64,000 bases of DNA from positions 512,001 to 576,000 of the forward strand of contig OZ219865.1 of the NCBI GenBank assembly GCA_964291675.2, written 5' to 3'. This stretch comes from Alphaproteobacteria bacterium (GTDB taxonomy: Bacteria > Pseudomonadota > Alphaproteobacteria > MPNO01). Made by a program: the position numbers and the translations under genes. Positions 11,431 through 37,644 of this stretch are shown piece by piece. Every line of letters begins with the position of its first letter. The first letter of the stretch is position 1. Under the pieces are notes generated by a model that ran no database searches, had not been told where the DNA came from, and was given only the letters and a program-made list of their open reading frames with translations.

Positions 11431-12105
11431 CGTCATGGCCGGACTTGATCCGGGGGCCGGGCATGACGATGGGGGGAGGCATGGTGATGGGGCGGGAAAC
11501 GCCGGGCGCGACGCGCGTCGAAGGCTAAACCGGACAGCAGTGGGGCAAGTCCACTGCTGTCCGGTTTATGTGAGCTGGACCGGGCGCAAAGCCTTGTTCC
11601 GGGCGGGATATCGGCGCGTCCGCCGGATCGGGACACGGATCGCCGCACGCCCGCACTTGCCGTCCCTGCCCCTCCGTTGTCACACCGGCCTCGTTCCGGG
11701 CACCCACGGGCGGGGCGGGCCGCACCCGGCTCCCGTACTCCTCCACCGCCACCACCACCCCGTCATGGCCGGACTTGATCCGGCCACCCATGCGCGGACT
11801 TGATCCGCGCAACCACTGGCGCCACCGCTACAACGCCCCGTCGGGAGAGGCGGCGGCGCCAGTGGATGCCCGGATCAAGTCCGGGCATGACGACGGGTGG
11901 GGGACGCCGGGGGAAGGACCCGCGGGCCGCCGTCCCCACACCCCACGCACTCCCCGTCATGCCCGGACTTGCCCCGGATCACAGTCCGGGGCTTGATCCG
12001 GGCATCCATGGGCGCCGCCACCGCTCCCGCCCCGCTGCCATGCGCGCGGAGGCCGCGTGGATGGCCGGATCGCCCCCGGACTTGATCCGGGGGCCAGCCA
12101 TGACG
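11431..12105. repeat. cluster of REP-like palindromes holding a permuted copy of the 330-bp MITE unit
   Basis: Several gtcatg(g/c)ccggacttgatccgg / ggatgcccggatcaagtccgggcatgac hairpins; 11553-11880 is nearly identical to the units at 33889-34878. Confidence 0.9.
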
Positions 12106-30855: not shown

Positions 30856-31596
30856 TCAGCTCAGCGCGTCGGGCGGCAGGTCCAGCGCCTTCGCGATGGC
30901 GCTCCGCGTCTTGGGCGCGCCGCGATGCCGGCCCGTCTCGATATGCGACAAATAGGCGTGACTAATTCCGGCGGCGTCGGCAAGCTCTCTTATGGTCATG
31001 CCGCGGCGCCGCCGGCAGGCCCTGATCGGGCTCTCGTCGGATGCCGGGCGGGAAATGGCGTGCGGAAGAAGCAGCGCCGCGCCGGCCCCGGAGATCCGCT
31101 CGGCCACAGCCTCGTCGGCGGGGGCGGCCGGGACGTCGGGTCCGGCGACGAGGGTGAAATCGGGCGCCAGGGGAGAGCCGGCGATCTGCCACAACCGCAT
31201 CTCGACGGCGAAACAGCGAAGCGCGCCGTCGCCGAGCCGGTTCAGGTCCCTGACCACCTCGCGGTGTTCCTCGTGGAACCGGGTGGCGAGCCAGACCGCG
31301 CAGGCCGGCAGCCTGAGGGCATAGGTCAGGACCTGGCCGAGATGGGAGTGGTCGCTGAGCCCGAGCTGGGCCTCGATCACCACCGCTTCGCCGGTGGGGC
31401 GGTCGCGGCACAGGAGGTCGGCGCGGAACCGCCCGACATGGGTCTCCCGGGCCAGCGGCTCCAGATCGAAGCGCAGGGCGAGGCCGAGGCGCCGCAGGTT
31501 CTCCTCCTCCGTGAGCCAGGGGACGAATTCGCCCGGCTCGCTCTGCCAGACGGTTGCCGGCACGACGTGTTCGAGTTGTCCGAAAGACCTGTCCAT
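30856..31596 (-). CDS. PD-(D/E)XK-like domain (like the N-terminus of DUF4268 proteins) fused to a C-terminal XRE HTH
   Basis: FVPWL, VGRFRADLLC, VVIEAQL, DHSHLGQVLTYA; then RRRRGMTIRELADAAGISHAYLSHIETG. Confidence 0.8.
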   Translation of the reverse strand: MDRSFGQLEHVVPATVWQSEPGEFVPWLTEEENLRRLGLALRFDLEPLARETHVGRFRADLLCRDRPTGEAVVIEAQLGLSDHSHLGQVLTYALRLPACAVWLATRFHEEHREVVRDLNRLGDGALRCFAVEMRLWQIAGSPLAPDFTLVAGPDVPAAPADEAVAERISGAGAALLLPHAISRPASDESPIRACRRRRGMTIRELADAAGISHAYLSHIETGRHRGAPKTRSAIAKALDLPPDALS

Positions 31597-31812
31597 CGGG
31601 GCGGTGCTCCGTTGTTCGGGGTTGCGGGCACGAAAAAGGGCGCCGGCAGCTCCGGCGCCCTATTTCTCGACTGTGGTAAATCTACACCAAAACGCGTCCC
31701 ATGTCAAGTAGTTTTTTTCTTATTACGTCATGACCGGGCTCGTTCCGGCCATCCATGCCGCCAGCGAGGCGACGCCCATGGATGCCCGGATCAAGTCCAC
31801 TGCTGTCCGGTT

Positions 31813-33570
31813 GCCGTGAAACAGTTTCGGTGGGGGCGCGCGAGGGCCCCATCCAACGCCGGGAGGGAGTTGGCTGAGATCGCCGGAAGGGGGCGGCGAG
31901 ACGAGCGGTGGACTTCCCCGATGTGGCCCGAAGCGGTCCCGCGCGGCGGTCCGGCGTTATGCGGGCCGGTCAGGTGGCCTTGGGTTCGGCGCGCCGGGGT
32001 TGGATGTAGCCGTAGCGGCGGAGCATTCGGATCCAGCGCGGGGCGTTGCGCTTGACCATCAGCGCGTCGTAGTCGGCGGTGCGGTCGTAGTAGGGCCTGC
32101 CGGTCTTGAGCACGACATAAACGATGCGCAGCATCTTGTGTGCGCCGGCCACGATGGCGCGCTTGTATCCGCGCCGGGCGGCGAGCGCGCGGTGGTGGGC
32201 CTCGAACTGGCACCCCTTGGTTCGGGCCGCGCCGTGGGCACATTCGACGAGGCTGGCGCGCAGCGTCCTGGAGCCCCTTCGGGTGCGCGCGTTGCGGCGC
32301 TTTCCGCCGCTTTCGTTGTTGCCGGGGCAGAGCCCGGCCCAGGCGGCGAAGTGCTGCTTGGAGGCGAACGCCTCGATATCCGGGCCGATCTCGATCAGGA
32401 TGGTCGAGGCGGCGATGCGGTCGATGCCGGGGATGGTGGTCAGCAGGCGGAGCTGTTCCTGCCACGGCGTCATCTGCCGGTCGATCTTCTCGCCGTAGGA
32501 CGCGATGCGCGCCTCGAGCGCGTCATGCTCGTCCAGCAGATCGCCGAGCATGAAGCGGTCGTTGTCGCCCAGGCTCAGGGAGAGCGCCTCGCCGAGCCCC
32601 TCCAGCTTGTTGGCGACGTGGCCGGTGAGCGAGGCGAGGATGACCGCGCGCGGCGTGGCTTGCGCCAGCCCGTCGAGGATCTTGCGGCCGTTGACGCCGA
32701 AGACGTCGGAGAGGATGCCGCCGATGCGCAGGCCGGCGCGGTCGACGATCTTCTGCACCCGGTTGCGCACGGTCGAGCGCTGCCTGACCAGGGTACGCCG
32801 CTGGCGGCTCAGCGAGCGCAGCTCCCGGAACGGCTCGGGGGGAACATGGGAAGGCGTGCAGAGCCCGAACTGGCACACGCAGGCCAGCCACACGCTGTCG
32901 GCGACATCGGTCTTGCGCCCCTTCAATGCTTGACCTGACGCGCGTGCACCAGGATCGCTTCGATCCCCGCCGCCTCCACCGCCGCGAAGGGCGCCTGCCA
33001 GTAGATCCCGGTCCCTTCCATGACAGCGGCCTCGACGCGGCGACCGGTCAGCCAGGCGACCATCTCCGCCAGACCGCTCGGAAGCGAGCTGAAGCAGCGC
33101 GTCTCCACCACCGGCTCGCCCTCGCCCTCGCACAGGCGAACCGTCGCGGTGATCTCCATCTTGTGCACGTCCAGACCCGCCGCGCGCGGCCGCACGACGT
33201 GCAAGCCTTCCGTCTTCATCGCTGTCCTCCTCGTTGCGCTCTCGCCACGGCGGCGTAGGATCGCGCCGTGGCATCGCCACGGTGGAGGCGGGGACAGCGG
33301 TCGGAAAGACACGCACCCGTCGAGCGGGTGCGGTTCGATTTGCCGCGCGTCCACGGCCGCGGGCCGGGCACAGTACGGGGTGCGGAGCCGACCGCCGGAA
33401 GCAGTTTATATCTCGGGAACCACATCACCGATAAACGGAACGCTCACGCGTCGCCGCCTCCACCGTTCCCATCCTGCCACGGCAGACCCGCGCGACGATC
33501 GGCAAACCCTCAGCCGAACGCCCCGAGTTTCATGCCACGGGGTGGCTCAGCACCGCCGAGACCATGACGG
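31813..33570 (-). mobile_element. IS110-family element
   Basis: The flanks rejoin to ctgctgtccggtttatatgagctggaccggg, matching the empty site at 11554-11584; cggtt occurs at both junctions; no terminal inverted repeats. Confidence 0.88.
31970..33219 (-). pseudogene. IS110 recombinase with a 1-nt frameshift near 32925
   Basis: GLDVHK, VMEGTGIYW, GRKTDVADS (DEDD); AWAGLCPGNNESGGK (catalytic Ser loop); reads QVKH* where QVKQLKGRKTD is expected. Confidence 0.9.
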
Positions 33571-34878
33571 TTTATATGAGCTGGACCGGGCGCAAAGCCT
33601 TGTTCCGGGCGGGATATCGGCGCATCCGCCGGATCGGGACACGGATCGCCGCACGCCCGCACTTGCCGTCCCTGCCCCTGTGTTGTCACCCCGGCCGCGT
33701 TCCGGGCACCCACGGGCGGGGCGGGCCGCCCCCGGCTCCCGTACTCCTCCACCGCCACCCCCACCCCGTCATGGCCGGACTTGATCCGGCCATCCATGCG
33801 CAGACTTGATCCGCGCAACCACTGGCGCCACCGGTACAACGCCCCGTCGGGAGGAGCGGCGGCGCCAGTGGATGCCCGGATCGAGGCCACTGCTGTCCGG
33901 TTTGGATCAGCTGGACCGGGCGCAAAGCCTTGTTTCGGGCGGGATATCGGCGCATCCGCCGGATCGGGACACGGATCGCCGCACGCCCGCACTTGCCGTC
34001 CCTGCCCCTCCGTTGTCACCCCGGCCTCGTTCCGGGCACCCACGGGCGGGGCGGGCCGCACCCGGCTCCCGTACTCCTCCACCGCCACCACCACCCCGTC
34101 ATGGCCGGACTTGATCCGGCCACCCATGCGCGGACTTGATCCGCGCAACCACTGGCGCCACCGGTACAACGCCCCGTCGGGAGGAGCGGCGGCGCCAGTG
34201 GATGCCCGGATCAAGTCCACTGCTGTCCGGTTTGGATCAGCTGGACCGGGCGCAAAGCCTTGTTCCGGGCGGGATATCGGCGCATCCGCCGGATCGGGAC
34301 ACGGATCGCCGCACGCCCGCACTTGCCGTCCCTGCCCCTCCGTTGTCACCCCGGCCTCGTTCCGGGCACCCACGGGCGGGGCGGGCCGCACCCGGCTCCC
34401 GTACTCCTCCACCGCCACCACCACCCCGTCATGGCCGGACTTGATCCGGCCACCCATGCGCGGACTTGATCCGCGCAACCACTGGCGCCACCGGTACAAC
34501 GCCCCGTCGGGAGGAGCGGCGGCGCCAGTGGATGCCCGGATCAAGTCCACTGCTGTCCGGTTTGGATCAGCTGGACCGGGCGCAAAGCCTTGTTCCGGGC
34601 GGGATATCGGCGCATCCGCCGGATCGGGACACGGATCGCCGCACGCCCGCACTTGCCGTCCCTGCCCCTCCGTTGTCACCCCGGCCTCGTTCCGGGCACC
34701 CACGGGCGGGGCGGGCCGCACCCGGCTCCCGTGCTCCTCCACCGCGACCCCCACCCCGTCATGGCCGGACTTGATCCGGCCACCCATGCGCGGACTTGAT
34801 CCGCGCAACCACTGGCGCCACCGGTACAACGCCCCGTCGGGAGGAGCGGCGGCGCCAGTGGGTGCCCGGATCAAGTCC
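33571..34878 (+). repeat. tandem array of four 330-bp units
   Basis: Unit starts at 33889, 34219 and 34549; the first unit is split by IS110; near-identical; each contains REP hairpins. Confidence 0.97.
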
Positions 34879-35358
34879 GGGCATGACGATGGGGGGAGGC
34901 ATGGCGCTGGGCGGGGAACGCCGGGCGCGGCCCGCGTCGAAGGCTAAACCGGACAGCAGTGGATCAAGTCCGGGCATGACGGCGGGGGGGTTGGCATGCC
35001 AGGGAAGGCGGCGGCCCGGGCGACCTTCCTCGACGTTCTCCCCACCCCGTCATGGCCGGACTCGTTCCGGCCATCCATGCGGCCCCACCGCGCGCGAGGC
35101 TGCCGGTCGGGAGCGGTGGCGGCGCCCATGGGCGCCCGAAACACGCCCGGACGTGTTCCGGGGGCCGGGCGTTACGGGGAACGGGTTCGTTGGAACCGGA
35201 TGGGCTCCGGCGCGTCGCCGTCCTCGAACTGGCAGAGAACGGCGTCCCGCGCCATCTCCTTCGGATCGTCCCGGTCATCGCCTTGCGTGAAGATGGCGTG
35301 GCCGAGGGCGCGGGCGCCTTAGCCGCCTCCGCTCCCTTCCCCGCCCCTCGCCGGCGGA

Positions 35359-37644
35359 CTACTCGGCGGCCGCCCTGGTCTCGCCGCCGTCCATCAGCGC
35401 CAGCAGCTTGGGCGGCGACATCGGCAGCGACTGCGGCCGGATGCCGATCGCATCGCCGATCGCGTTGCCGATCGCCGCCAGCGTCGGCACCACCGGAACC
35501 TCGCCCACGCCCCTGAGCCCGTAGGGGTGGTTGGGGTTGGGGACCTCGACGATCACGGTGTCGATCATCGGCACGTCGGACGCCACCGGCATGCGGTAGT
35601 CGAGGAAGCTCGGATTGTCGAGGGTTCCGTCCTCGCGGTAGATGTACTCCTCGTTGAGCGCCCAGCCGATCCCCTGCACCGCGCCGCCCTGGTACTGGCC
35701 CTCGACCTGCAGCGGGTGGATCGCCTTGCCGGCATCCTCGACCACGGTGTAGCGGGTCACGTCCACCCGGCCGGTGCCGCGGTCGACCTTGAGGTCGACG
35801 ATATGCACCCCGAAGCCCGGCCCCTCGCCGGTGACGTTCATCTCCGAATGGCCGGCGATGGCGCCGTGGCTGACGCTGGTCCGGGACGCGATGTCCTTGA
35901 TCGAGAGCGGCTCGAAATCGCCCACATTGGCGCTCGCCGGCCGGCAATGGCCGTCCTCGAAGACGACCTCCTCGGGCGAGACGCCCCAGATCTCGGCCGC
36001 GCGCGAGACCATGGTGTCGATCGCCTTGCGCGCCGAGTCGACGATCACCATGCCCGACGAGAAGGTGGTCCGGCTGCCGGCCGTGACCCGGTTGTTGCCG
36101 ATGGCGCTGGTGTCGGCGAAGGTCGCCCGCACCTTGTCGAGCGGCACGCCCAGCTCTTCGGCCGCCATCATGCTGATCGAGACCCGCGAGCCGGCGACGT
36201 CGGAGGTCCCCAGCATGATGTTGACCGAGCCGTCGGGCGTTATCGTGAGCGATCCGGTGGTGTCGCCGCCCCGGTTGAACCAGAACCCGGCGGCGACGCC
36301 GCGCCCCTCGCCCGGCGCGACCGGCGCGTTGTAGTGCTCGGTCGCCTTCGCCGCCTCCAGCGTCTCGACGAAGCCGATCGGCCCGAAGGTCGCGCCGTAC
36401 AGCGTGGTATAGCCCTCGGTGGCGGCGTTCTTGAGCCGGAAGTCGAGCTCGTCCATGCCGATCTTGCCGGCGAGCTCGGTGACGATGGCTTCCACGCCGA
36501 ACACGATCTGCGGCACGCAGGGCGCGCGGAAGGCGTTCACCTTGGGCCGGTTGGAGACCACCTCGTAGGCGGTGGTCTTGATGTTCTCCAGCGCGTAGCG
36601 GGTGAACATCGCGTGCGGCGCGTTGAAGAACATCGAGCCGGTGAAGGCGCCGGTCTGGAAGATCAGCTCGGCCTCGGCCGCGGTGATCCTGCCGTCTTGG
36701 GTGCAGCCCATCCTGATCCGCGAGCGGGTGCCCGAGACCGGGCCGGTGCAGCGAAAAACCTCGTTCCGGGTCAGCACGATCTTGACCGGCCGGCGCGCCT
36801 TCTTGGACAGCAGCGCCGCCAAAGGCTCGCCGTAGAAGCTGGTCTTGCCGCCGAACCCGCCACCCATCTCGGACTGCATCACCTTGATGCGCGAGGAATC
36901 GAGCCTGAGGATGTCGGCCATCCGGTCGCGGAAGACGTGCGTCCCCTGGGTGCAGCACCAGACTTCGATCTCGTCGTTCTCGTTGCAGTTGGCGACGCAG
37001 CCCTGGGGCTCGATATAGCCCTGATGCATGGGCTTTGAGTCGTACTCGCGCTCGACGATGACGTCGGCCGCGGCGAACCCCGCCTCGGTGTCGCCCATCG
37101 CGAGGTCGAGCCGCTCGACGATATTGGTCGGCGTGTCCCCTCCCCCCTCGACGCCCTTGGTGCGCAGATGGTCGTGCAGGATCGGCGCGCCGGGCTGCAT
37201 CGCCTCGACCGGGTCGATGACATGCGGCAGGACCTCGTACTCGACCTCGATCAGCTTGAGCGCCCGCCTGGCGACCGGCTCGCTGGTCGCGGCTACCGCG
37301 GCCACCGGGTGGCCGTCGTAAAACACCTTTTCGCGCGCCATGACGTTGCGCGACAGGTCGCCGCCGGGCGTGCCCTGCGGCAGCTCGGGAAAATCGTCCC
37401 TCGTGACCACCGCCTTGACGCCCGGCAGGGCGTCGGCCTTCGAGATGTCGATCGACTTCAGCACCGCGTGCGGGTGCGGGCTCCTGAGGATCTTGCCGAA
37501 CAGCATGCCCGGCAGGATGAGGTCGGCGCCGAACTTGGCGCGCCCGGTCACCTTGTCCGGCCCGTCATGCTTGACCGGGTTGGTGCCGACGATCTTCAGC
37601 TCGCGATCGGGGTTGAAACCGGAATTCTCCAGAATGCTCGCCAT
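35359..37644 (-). CDS. xanthine dehydrogenase-family molybdopterin-binding subunit
   Basis: HQGYIEP, MGGGFGGK, AGSRT, EGQYQGGAVQGIG, RGVGE. Confidence 0.95.
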   Translation of the reverse strand: MASILENSGFNPDRELKIVGTNPVKHDGPDKVTGRAKFGADLILPGMLFGKILRSPHPHAVLKSIDISKADALPGVKAVVTRDDFPELPQGTPGGDLSRNVMAREKVFYDGHPVAAVAATSEPVARRALKLIEVEYEVLPHVIDPVEAMQPGAPILHDHLRTKGVEGGGDTPTNIVERLDLAMGDTEAGFAAADVIVEREYDSKPMHQGYIEPQGCVANCNENDEIEVWCCTQGTHVFRDRMADILRLDSSRIKVMQSEMGGGFGGKTSFYGEPLAALLSKKARRPVKIVLTRNEVFRCTGPVSGTRSRIRMGCTQDGRITAAEAELIFQTGAFTGSMFFNAPHAMFTRYALENIKTTAYEVVSNRPKVNAFRAPCVPQIVFGVEAIVTELAGKIGMDELDFRLKNAATEGYTTLYGATFGPIGFVETLEAAKATEHYNAPVAPGEGRGVAAGFWFNRGGDTTGSLTITPDGSVNIMLGTSDVAGSRVSISMMAAEELGVPLDKVRATFADTSAIGNNRVTAGSRTTFSSGMVIVDSARKAIDTMVSRAAEIWGVSPEEVVFEDGHCRPASANVGDFEPLSIKDIASRTSVSHGAIAGHSEMNVTGEGPGFGVHIVDLKVDRGTGRVDVTRYTVVEDAGKAIHPLQVEGQYQGGAVQGIGWALNEEYIYREDGTLDNPSFLDYRMPVASDVPMIDTVIVEVPNPNHPYGLRGVGEVPVVPTLAAIGNAIGDAIGIRPQSLPMSPPKLLALMDGGETRAAAE

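Follow-up and report, generated by a model that had tools for sequence, protein, structure and literature searches.

A candidate bridge RNA in the left end of a frameshifted IS110-family element inserted near the end of a MITE-like repeat

What directs an insertion sequence (IS) to one and the same point inside another mobile-looking repeat? The question is raised by an IS110-family element at 31811-33571 (minus strand; left end, LE, at 33571, right end, RE, at 31811) in a 64,000-nucleotide (nt) stretch of alphaproteobacterial DNA (assembly GCA_964291675.2, contig OZ219865.1, positions 512,001 to 576,000), the whole of which is hereafter called the window. The element consists of a non-coding left end of 350 nt, the gene of its transposase (33219-31970) and ~160 nt of right end. 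A first-pass annotation, made from the letters alone, had noticed that the leader holds TTGCCG (33340-33345), identical to the element-end junction (31811-31816), and GTTTATAT (33404-33411), identical to the target flank (33570-33577), letters and coordinates that are all correct, and had read the leader as a candidate bridge RNA programmed against the end of a miniature inverted-repeat transposable element (MITE). Removal of the IS does restore the repeat, as had also been claimed: 31800-31810 joined to 33570 onward gives ctgctgtccggtttatatgagctgg, the layout of uninterrupted units, with ctgctgtccgg running into tttatatgagctgg. The evidence set out below makes it very probable that the window element is a frameshifted IS110-family copy whose left end, ~350 nt long, specifies a bridge RNA read from the same strand as the transposase; the finding is expected for the family, and the principle of the bridge RNA is already established.

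In RNA sense GTTTATAT reads ATATAAAC. The left-target guide AUAUAAAC (33404-33411, minus strand), on the 3' side of a predicted target loop, is identical to the left flank's top strand, and its pairing partner would therefore be the bottom strand; the left target comprises ATAT and the inferred core AA (33572-33577, minus strand), and the right target CCGGACAGCAG (31800-31810, minus strand) forms the outer part of the terminal inverted repeat of the host repeat. Relatives with 58-99% protein identity turned up at 78 loci in a scan of 185,579 species genomes, and their leaders align throughout. The segment homologous to 33404-33411 was tested for invariance among them and varies instead between lineages, in 16 versions that each recur directly to the left of their own element's left end and track that flank: ATATAAAC (here), ATCTAAAC, GCAAAAAAC, GACAAAAC, CGCCAAAAC, CAAAAAC, CACCAAAC, ACTAAAC, CGCTAAAC, CCACAAAC, CACGAAAC, CCTAAAAC, CTCCAAAC, TGAGAAAC, GTTGAAAC and GTCTAAAC. 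Guide and flank agree at two cleanly aligned variable columns in 19/19 sequences, and the summed longest match between cognate guides and left flanks is 150 versus 88.8±4.7 after shuffling (permutation z=13.1), a value as high being reached in 0/1000 shuffles. The clearest case comes from a sister genome (G002), whose element shares 99% of its protein and 98% of its leader with that of the genome holding the window (G000): its guide is ATCTAAAC, two of its three copies stand at ATCTAAAC in a similar repeat end and the third matches the guide at 6/8 positions, so that where the guide differs by one letter (ATAT to ATCT) the occupied sites differ in the same way. Two metagenome contigs, from a scan that gave six loci, three of them usable, add one 8/8 case of guide and flank and one of 6/8. 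The CATGG anchor that served to locate left flanks failed or mis-matched at L014, L021, L049, L054, L059, L065, L067 and L068-L074; flanks were re-derived for L014, L067, L070 and L072, and L065, with its truncated left end, has none. L039, L064 and L076 are without a right end and hence without a right flank, and L050, L060 and L075 were left out, having no guide by pattern. Judged from these alignments, the 8-nt match to the insertion site is not a matter of chance.

The occupancy of sites within a single genome tells a similar story. G000 (4.8 Mb, two contigs) holds eight full copies of the element, 1759-1761 base pairs (bp) long, with common ends and 99-100% identity. Counted on both strands, ATATAAAC occurs there 16 times, eight times as a leader guide, five times as the left flank of an IS and three times as an empty site, and these empty sites continue GA and lie outside repeats. 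ATATAAA is found at 21 sites outside leaders; all five that continue with CC are occupied and the other 16 are empty, and ATATAAACC is likewise occupied in 5/5 cases. The first-pass annotation would have lost its footing if other copies sat at unrelated sites; all eight stand at ATATAAAC or at a site one mismatch away from it, at the same point of the inverted-repeat end of a ~400-bp MITE-like repeat, 11-12 nt inside that end. These sites are (A/C)(T/C) variants of ATATAAAC followed by CGGACAGCAG, and the guide-like end of the repeat is the only one whose inner neighbour reads ...CAT(A/C)(T/C)AAAC, the other end reading AGGCTAAAC. The right flank CCGGACAGCAGTGGA, which is the inner part of the 15-nt terminal inverted repeat, occurs 116 times in G000 (with at most two substitutions) beside several different left neighbours, and eight of these sites are occupied. 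Among the empty repeat ends are at least 14 with ATCTAAAC and four or five with ACATAAAC.

The guide might be real and the eight copies might nevertheless owe their common site mainly to the copying of repeat and IS together as a composite, rather than to eight separate insertions. We consider this improbable. It would fit the restriction of all eight copies to one repeat family, the 96-100% identity of 100 nt of left flank among the copies, and the mobile look of the repeat with its inverted ends and repeated 11-bp flanks. The occupied units differ, however, from one another (ATAT, ACAT and ATCT, together with other flank changes), each type is also present among the empty units, and the outer 11-bp flanks differ among the IS-bearing units. 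Moreover, related elements in a further genome, G001, stand at 33 unrelated left flanks that have only (G)ACAAAA in common.

A bridge RNA should have a structure as well as guides, and RNAalifold applied to 20 diverse homolog leaders predicts a core of 184 nt (33281-33464, minus strand), in which a closing helix, P1, formed by 33454-33464 with 33281-33291 (GGAGGCGG... with ...CCGCCUCC), surrounds a target-binding and a donor-binding arm. The target-binding arm (33399-33445, minus strand) has a stem GAGCG/UGCUU and an internal loop of ~10+10 nt, with UUCCGUUUAU on its 5' side, the hairpin CGGUGA..UCCCG in the centre and AG-AUAUAAAC on its 3' side; its helices 2 and 3 carry compensatory changes, with 97-99% of cells paired. 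The donor-binding arm (33295-33398, minus strand) has a stem CCGGCGGUCGG/CCGACCGCUG and a multiloop with two hairpins (helices 4-6), between which CGGCAAA is single-stranded. Over 37 pairs 95.2% of cells are paired, versus 37-55% when the partners are slid by 1-3 columns; two-sided changes affect 14 pairs versus 3-4 in the slid controls, and the covariation score was reached by 0/500 shuffles. The minimum-energy folds of nine homologs independently give the same plan. A covariance model of the 184-nt core, R1, matches exactly the eight IS copies in G000 and no orphan; upstream of plasmid-borne relatives of the intact protein (P0001, below), the closest of which are at most 43% identical, it gave no significant match at four loci (best E-values 0.27-0.94, three of them at the expected place). 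Within the conserved helices 63 cells are G-U and 14 are A-C, which places the RNA on the transposase strand.

It is very unlikely that recognition proceeds at the level of DNA or protein, with leader segments that serve as DNA sites or a protein that reads the target, and no guide RNA at all. Such a view can point to the fact that no RNA has been observed for the window element, and to the conserved CATGG of the left end and the sub-terminal GTTTCA/TGAAAC, which resemble protein sites. Against it, the segments in question lie in single-stranded loops of helices that are kept by compensatory changes and by G-U pairs possible on the minus strand only, and relatives of the same family have been shown to use such RNAs (PMC11208160, PMC11187229).

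The donor side was approached through TTGCCG, which the first-pass annotation had taken for a donor match and which turns out to be part of a 7-nt left-donor guide, CGGCAAA (33339-33345, minus strand), identical to the terminus of the right end in those five copies whose end is GGCAAA. The right end of the window copy reads GGCAAC on its own strand, one A short of the GGCAAAC found in 5/8 copies, and the match is accordingly of 6 nt here and 7 nt in those. Among homologs CGGCAAA goes with a right end CGGCAA(A) and CAGCAAA with CAGCAA(A) (permutation z=3.1, p=0.004), the variable position being A in L061, L065, L066, L077 and L084 and G in all others; a match of 7-8 nt to the right-end terminus is present in all types. 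For the right half of the target the candidate guide is UUCCGUUU (33433-33440, minus strand) on the 5' side of the target loop, of which GUUU (33433-33436) is complementary to the top-strand AAAC at the crossover. Complementarity between this side of the loop and the right flank sums to 75.6 in cognate pairs and 64.4±2.8 in shuffled ones (p=0.0004 with all sites, p=0.02 with one site per type); clear examples, of 5-7 nt, are CCGCAU with ATGCGG in the L077 type, GAAGGU with ACCUUC (6 nt) in L149, GCGGU with ACCGC (5 nt) in L147, GUCUU with AAGAC in L069/72/73 and CCUUU with AAAGG in L084, and the register varies by 1-3 nt among homologs. Another candidate for this role, GCUGUCC (33293-33299), was dropped, being the 3' strand of a conserved helix.

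G001 allows the target to be read from many insertions of one element, with junctions taken from exact end strings and IS-IS junctions removed before logos were drawn. Its 33 different left junctions give the target logo (G)ACA-AA. In the 31 right junctions also used, CACGGC-AA is followed by A in 24 and G in seven, never by a pyrimidine, and then by near-random sequence; a purine at this base is as expected for pairing to a U, with which the short right guide would end. The crossover is thus inferred to lie in the AA core, with a left end that would begin AC, and the final C of the guide would then copy the element's own left end rather than the target. For the right-donor side the only nominal signal is an identity between the 5' loop of the target arm and the start of the left end (p=0.029), which we leave uninterpreted. 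Alignment column 139, which equals the third left-end base in 16/19 sequences, was set aside as a likely chance find among many tests.

Several results weigh against the bridge-RNA reading and concern the guides, the RNA and the sites alike. L012 matches its guide at 6/8 positions, and the sites of the eight copies in G000 are divided among ATATAAAC (five), ACATAAAC (two) and ATCTAAAC (one), so that 3/8 carry one mismatch; conversely, three perfect ATATAAAC sites are empty in G000, and in G002 7/20 examined repeat ends are perfect matches to ATCTAAAC and yet empty. The variation of the donor guide comes down to one G/A position in about two lineages and is weaker evidence than that of the target guide. 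In the window element only four contiguous nt of the right-target guide pair (GUUU/AAAC), and inspection by eye and by permutation of the three linkers of the donor arm (J3/4, J4/6 and J6/3; all p≥0.17) brought no right-donor guide to light. An Rfam scan of 31000-35500 gave sub-threshold chance matches only and no bridge-RNA family, and a consensus scan gave no sigma-70 promoter. RNA-library contigs overlap 33259-33429, and contigs can show neither transcription nor strand. Lastly, the folding of the leader on both strands, which had been suggested as a check, yields z values of -3.5 for the minus and -4.9 for the plus strand, and single-sequence energies leave the strand undecided; the choice of strand comes from the G-U counts instead.

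What these sites imply is that a match to the guide raises the odds of occupancy and is neither sufficient nor strictly necessary for it. The earlier proposal that the empty variants of the target mismatch the guide stands within the window, where four empty units read gtttatgt (after 11554) and gtttggat (after 33890, 34220 and 34550), and needs qualifying genome-wide, given three copies of eight at one-mismatch variants that include the gtttatgt type, the three empty perfect 8-mers of G000 and the at least seven empty perfect sites of G002.

The slightly better fold of the plus strand as a single sequence is also what an antisense functional RNA, transcribed from the window's plus strand, would have in its favour; with 63 G-U versus 14 A-C cells in the conserved helices, and with both a -10-like motif and the downstream gene on the minus strand, we regard it as hardly credible. 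The motif is the hexamer CAGGAT (33471-33476, minus strand), which follows TGG 7 nt upstream of P1, is replaced by GAGAAT, CACAAT or CAGAAT in homologs and could, speculatively, belong to a promoter. The P6 hairpin with UGUCUUU has a terminator-like score and was rejected as a terminator, lying inside the conserved structure. Between the predicted core and the ribosome-binding site, 33220-33280 holds extra hairpins (e.g. CCGTGGC-GAT-GCCACGG) that the alphaproteobacterial copies have and shorter homologs lack, and that might have a part in processing or attenuation. That the 8- and 6-nt matches arose by chance and the leader is merely a structured 5' untranslated region, an option the first-pass annotation had kept open and to which the shortness of the matches and the ease with which GC-rich leaders fold on both strands lend some colour, has next to no probability left and is refuted already by the covariation of guide with flank, in 16 versions and with no shuffle of 1000 reaching the observed match, and 13 of the 16 genomic ATATAAAC are moreover guides or occupied sites.

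How would the bridge RNA act? By analogy with IS621, ISEc21 and ISPpu10, it would bind a DEDD/Ser recombinase that intact copies supply in trans. The left-target guide would pair with the target's bottom strand and the left-donor guide with that of the circular RE-LE junction, and the short right-target guide GUUU (within UUCCGUUU) with the target's top strand. Strand exchange might then take place at the AA core of both partners, ATAT.AA.ACCGG in the target and CACGGC.AA.ACCGTCATGG in the donor. The window copy itself is a non-autonomous pseudogene that intact copies could mobilise in trans.

Bridge RNAs have been predicted in 85.7% of the IS110 elements in ISfinder (PMC11208160), and the paradigm is IS621 (Durrant et al. 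2024, PMC11208160; Hiraizumi et al. 2024, PMC11208158). The window element resembles it in its DEDD plus Ser recombinase, in an RNA of ~180 nt, placed upstream of the gene in the left end, and in target and donor loops that each have a left guide equal to the top strand, with a short right-target guide (4 nt in IS621, a candidate here). It differs in its protein of 416 amino acids, which is distant from that of IS621 (E ~1e-15, C-terminal part), and in a core that is AA rather than CT. The target loop of IS621 runs from a stem to the left target guide, a stem-loop and the right target guide, whereas here the predicted order is right guide, stem-loop, left guide, and both left guides stand 3' of their stem-loops; here, too, one helix closes both arms, the donor guide lies in a multiloop and no right-donor guide was found in the donor-arm linkers. 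ISEc21, of IS110 type, has a seekRNA in which a bottom-strand match precedes a top-strand match (Siddiquee et al. 2024, PMC11187229). It shares with the window element an upstream non-coding region, an RNA that matches, or here would match, both target strands, a target within a mobile element and natural re-programming among relatives, but its guides come in the reverse order.

The guide order is instead that of the IS1111 type (ISEc11, ISPa11, ISKpn4; PMC11187229, PMC11208160), in which the top-strand match comes first. Here as there the segment that would pair with the top strand is 5' of that for the bottom strand, and the donor-binding bases sit in a multiloop. In those elements, by contrast, the RNA lies downstream of the gene, the transposases have 330-350 amino acids and the ends carry sub-terminal inverted repeats of 7-17 bp. 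The window element has a left end (350 nt) longer than its right end (~160 nt), a protein of 416 amino acids and only the asymmetric 6-8-bp GTTTCA/TGAAAC, features that set it outside the IS1111 group; its transposase fits the size class of the IS110-proper subgroup (395-455 amino acids in the accessible literature) and its RNA is upstream, yet the guides follow the IS1111-like order. ISPpu10 and ISPpu9 (bioRxiv 10.64898/2026.03.19.712850; PMC12288879) are likewise IS110-family elements that go into a single position within a palindromic repeat of many copies; the core of ISPpu10 is CT rather than the AA proposed here, and this element follows the pairing logic of IS621 and requires a target stem-loop. 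Aim at another mobile element, proposed for this guide by the first-pass annotation, holds here but is not new to the IS110 family, since ISEc21 targets IS3 transposase genes (PMC11187229). A further case is the IS4321/IS5075 work cited in PMC11208160, and IS1111-group elements directed at inverted-repeat ends are alike in aim, with large transposons as hosts where here it is a 400-bp MITE-like repeat.

A bolder extension is tentative, and we hold it to be somewhat less probable than its contrary: the 416-amino-acid IS110-type elements of 58-99% identity, so far met only in metagenome-assembled genomes, may form a clade with a circularly permuted bridge RNA. Such an RNA would combine the upstream position with an IS1111-like guide order, a single helix closing both arms, an AA core, a left guide that extends 2 nt (AC) into the element's own left end, and no separate right-donor guide. 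It might be a scaffold that links the IS110 and IS1111 groups, with recognition of the donor's left-end side left to protein or to the shared core alone. Full-text literature searches, whose reach did not extend to figures and supplements, found no description of a permuted or a MITE-directed bridge RNA.

The locus offers a clean natural example of bridge-RNA programming, in which every ATATAAACC site of one genome carries the element. Guide positions and an AA core become documented for the large-transposase subgroup of IS110, for which the accessible literature yielded no experimental RNA, and the reversal of the guide order relative to IS621 and ISEc21 should be useful to collectors of bridge-recombinase scaffolds. 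Because the principle is already established, the surprise to a specialist will be small. For annotation, the leader is to be entered as a bridge RNA (predicted) and the window copy as a pseudogene.

The transposase pseudogene (31970-33219, minus strand, 1250 nt) has lost one base after codon 97 (~32926) and runs into a stop at codon 99, which falls between E68 and D105/D108/S304 of the transposase. One other copy has the same deletion, and the remaining 6/8 encode the intact 416-amino-acid protein P0001. Both halves of the broken gene match Pfam (DEDD_Tnp_IS110, RuvC-like, and Transposase_20), and P0001 scores 266 bits (cut-off 140) against NCBIfam NF033542, 'IS110 family RNA-guided transposase'. 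In the PDB its relatives are the transposases of ISCro4 and IS621 (E ~1e-15, C-terminal part), and its motifs GLDVHK (D17), MEGTG (E68), KTDVADS (D105, D108) and NNESGG (S304) align with those of ISCro4; their equivalence to the catalytic residues D11/E60/D102/D105/S241 of IS621 is taken from the text of the paper, not from a direct alignment. Contigs assembled from public runs (three of RNA libraries and one of unknown kind, compared with the window) carry, like other copies, the base that is absent at 32926. In run X1 one contig, with a 22-nt side, has the IS-free form of the junction (31807 joined to 33568); it may simply be another repeat unit, and is no evidence of excision.

Insertion is at one position and brings no duplication of the target; long terminal inverted repeats are absent, and the junctions have only the core letters in common. 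The element ends are ambiguous by 5-6 bases within the CGGTT(T) common to donor and target, and had been set at 31811-33569 by the first-pass annotation. Tandem RE-LE junctions were not found in G000; in G001 they adjoin copies L020, L023, L028, L030, L036 and L075 and read CACGGCAAA(A)CAGTCATGG. The form with three A equals the predicted circle junction, indirect evidence for a circular intermediate with abutted ends, and that with four fits insertion beside an element already in place, the right junction of which looks like the target. At G000:C2:1938017-1939923 (L008/L009) a second right end, partial and ~147 bp long, lies behind one copy, and the junction, GGCAA followed by CGCCGGACC, is as expected from insertion into the target-like GCATAA.CGCCGGAC in the right end of another copy; the copy at G000:C1:1046197-1047955 (L003) has a 16-bp tandem duplication of its right-end tip. 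The sub-terminal inverted hexamers lie at unequal distances, GTTTCA near the right end (31819-31825) and TGAAAC ~40 nt into the left end (~33525-33532), and the pair changes jointly to ATTTCA/TGAAAT in the acidobacterial relatives and part of the gammaproteobacterial ones; it may represent either a site for a protein or a helix formed by the RNA of a junction transcript.

The host MITE-like repeat spans 31799-34960, with ends ACTGCTGTCCGG(TTT) (31799-31810) and AAACCGGACAGCAGT (34946-34960), and holds the IS and a 4 x 330-bp array. Its family is small, non-coding and multicopy, with a 15-nt terminal inverted repeat ACTGCTGTCCGGTTT...AAACCGGACAGCAGT, and given these ends and the many copies the description 'MITE end' is a reasonable one. 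G000 has 26 inverted pairs ACTGCTGTCCGG...CCGGACAGCAGT, most of them uninterrupted at 266-444 bp and five longer (1201-2309 bp), of which three hold this IS, as well as about 30 near-full units of ~330-350 bp; the uninterrupted pairs fall into two main size classes with ~400 bp and ~317 bp between ends. The repeats have REP-like palindromes (CCGGAyyyrrTCCGG) as their insertion sites. Compared in view of a possible target-site duplication, the 11-bp flanks outside their ends agree fully in 6/26 pairs versus 50/650 (7.7%) non-cognate pairs, a high background that reflects the REP-like nature of all flanks, and are sometimes inverted repeats. A REP-like repeat, GGCCGGCTGCCGTGAGCGACAA..., with 68 matches (38 exact) and most units empty, occurs in G001 (L089-L118), where it is one recurrent context of the GACAAAA-directed relative. 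Two repeat ends stand head to head in the window at 11530-11564, with 11 bp (GGGGCAAGTCC) between them. At 33568-34878 the repeat's own left end and interior recur in tandem as 4.0 units (330 bp each, 98% matches), every one of which contains ATCCAAAC, a form of the IS target with two mismatches.

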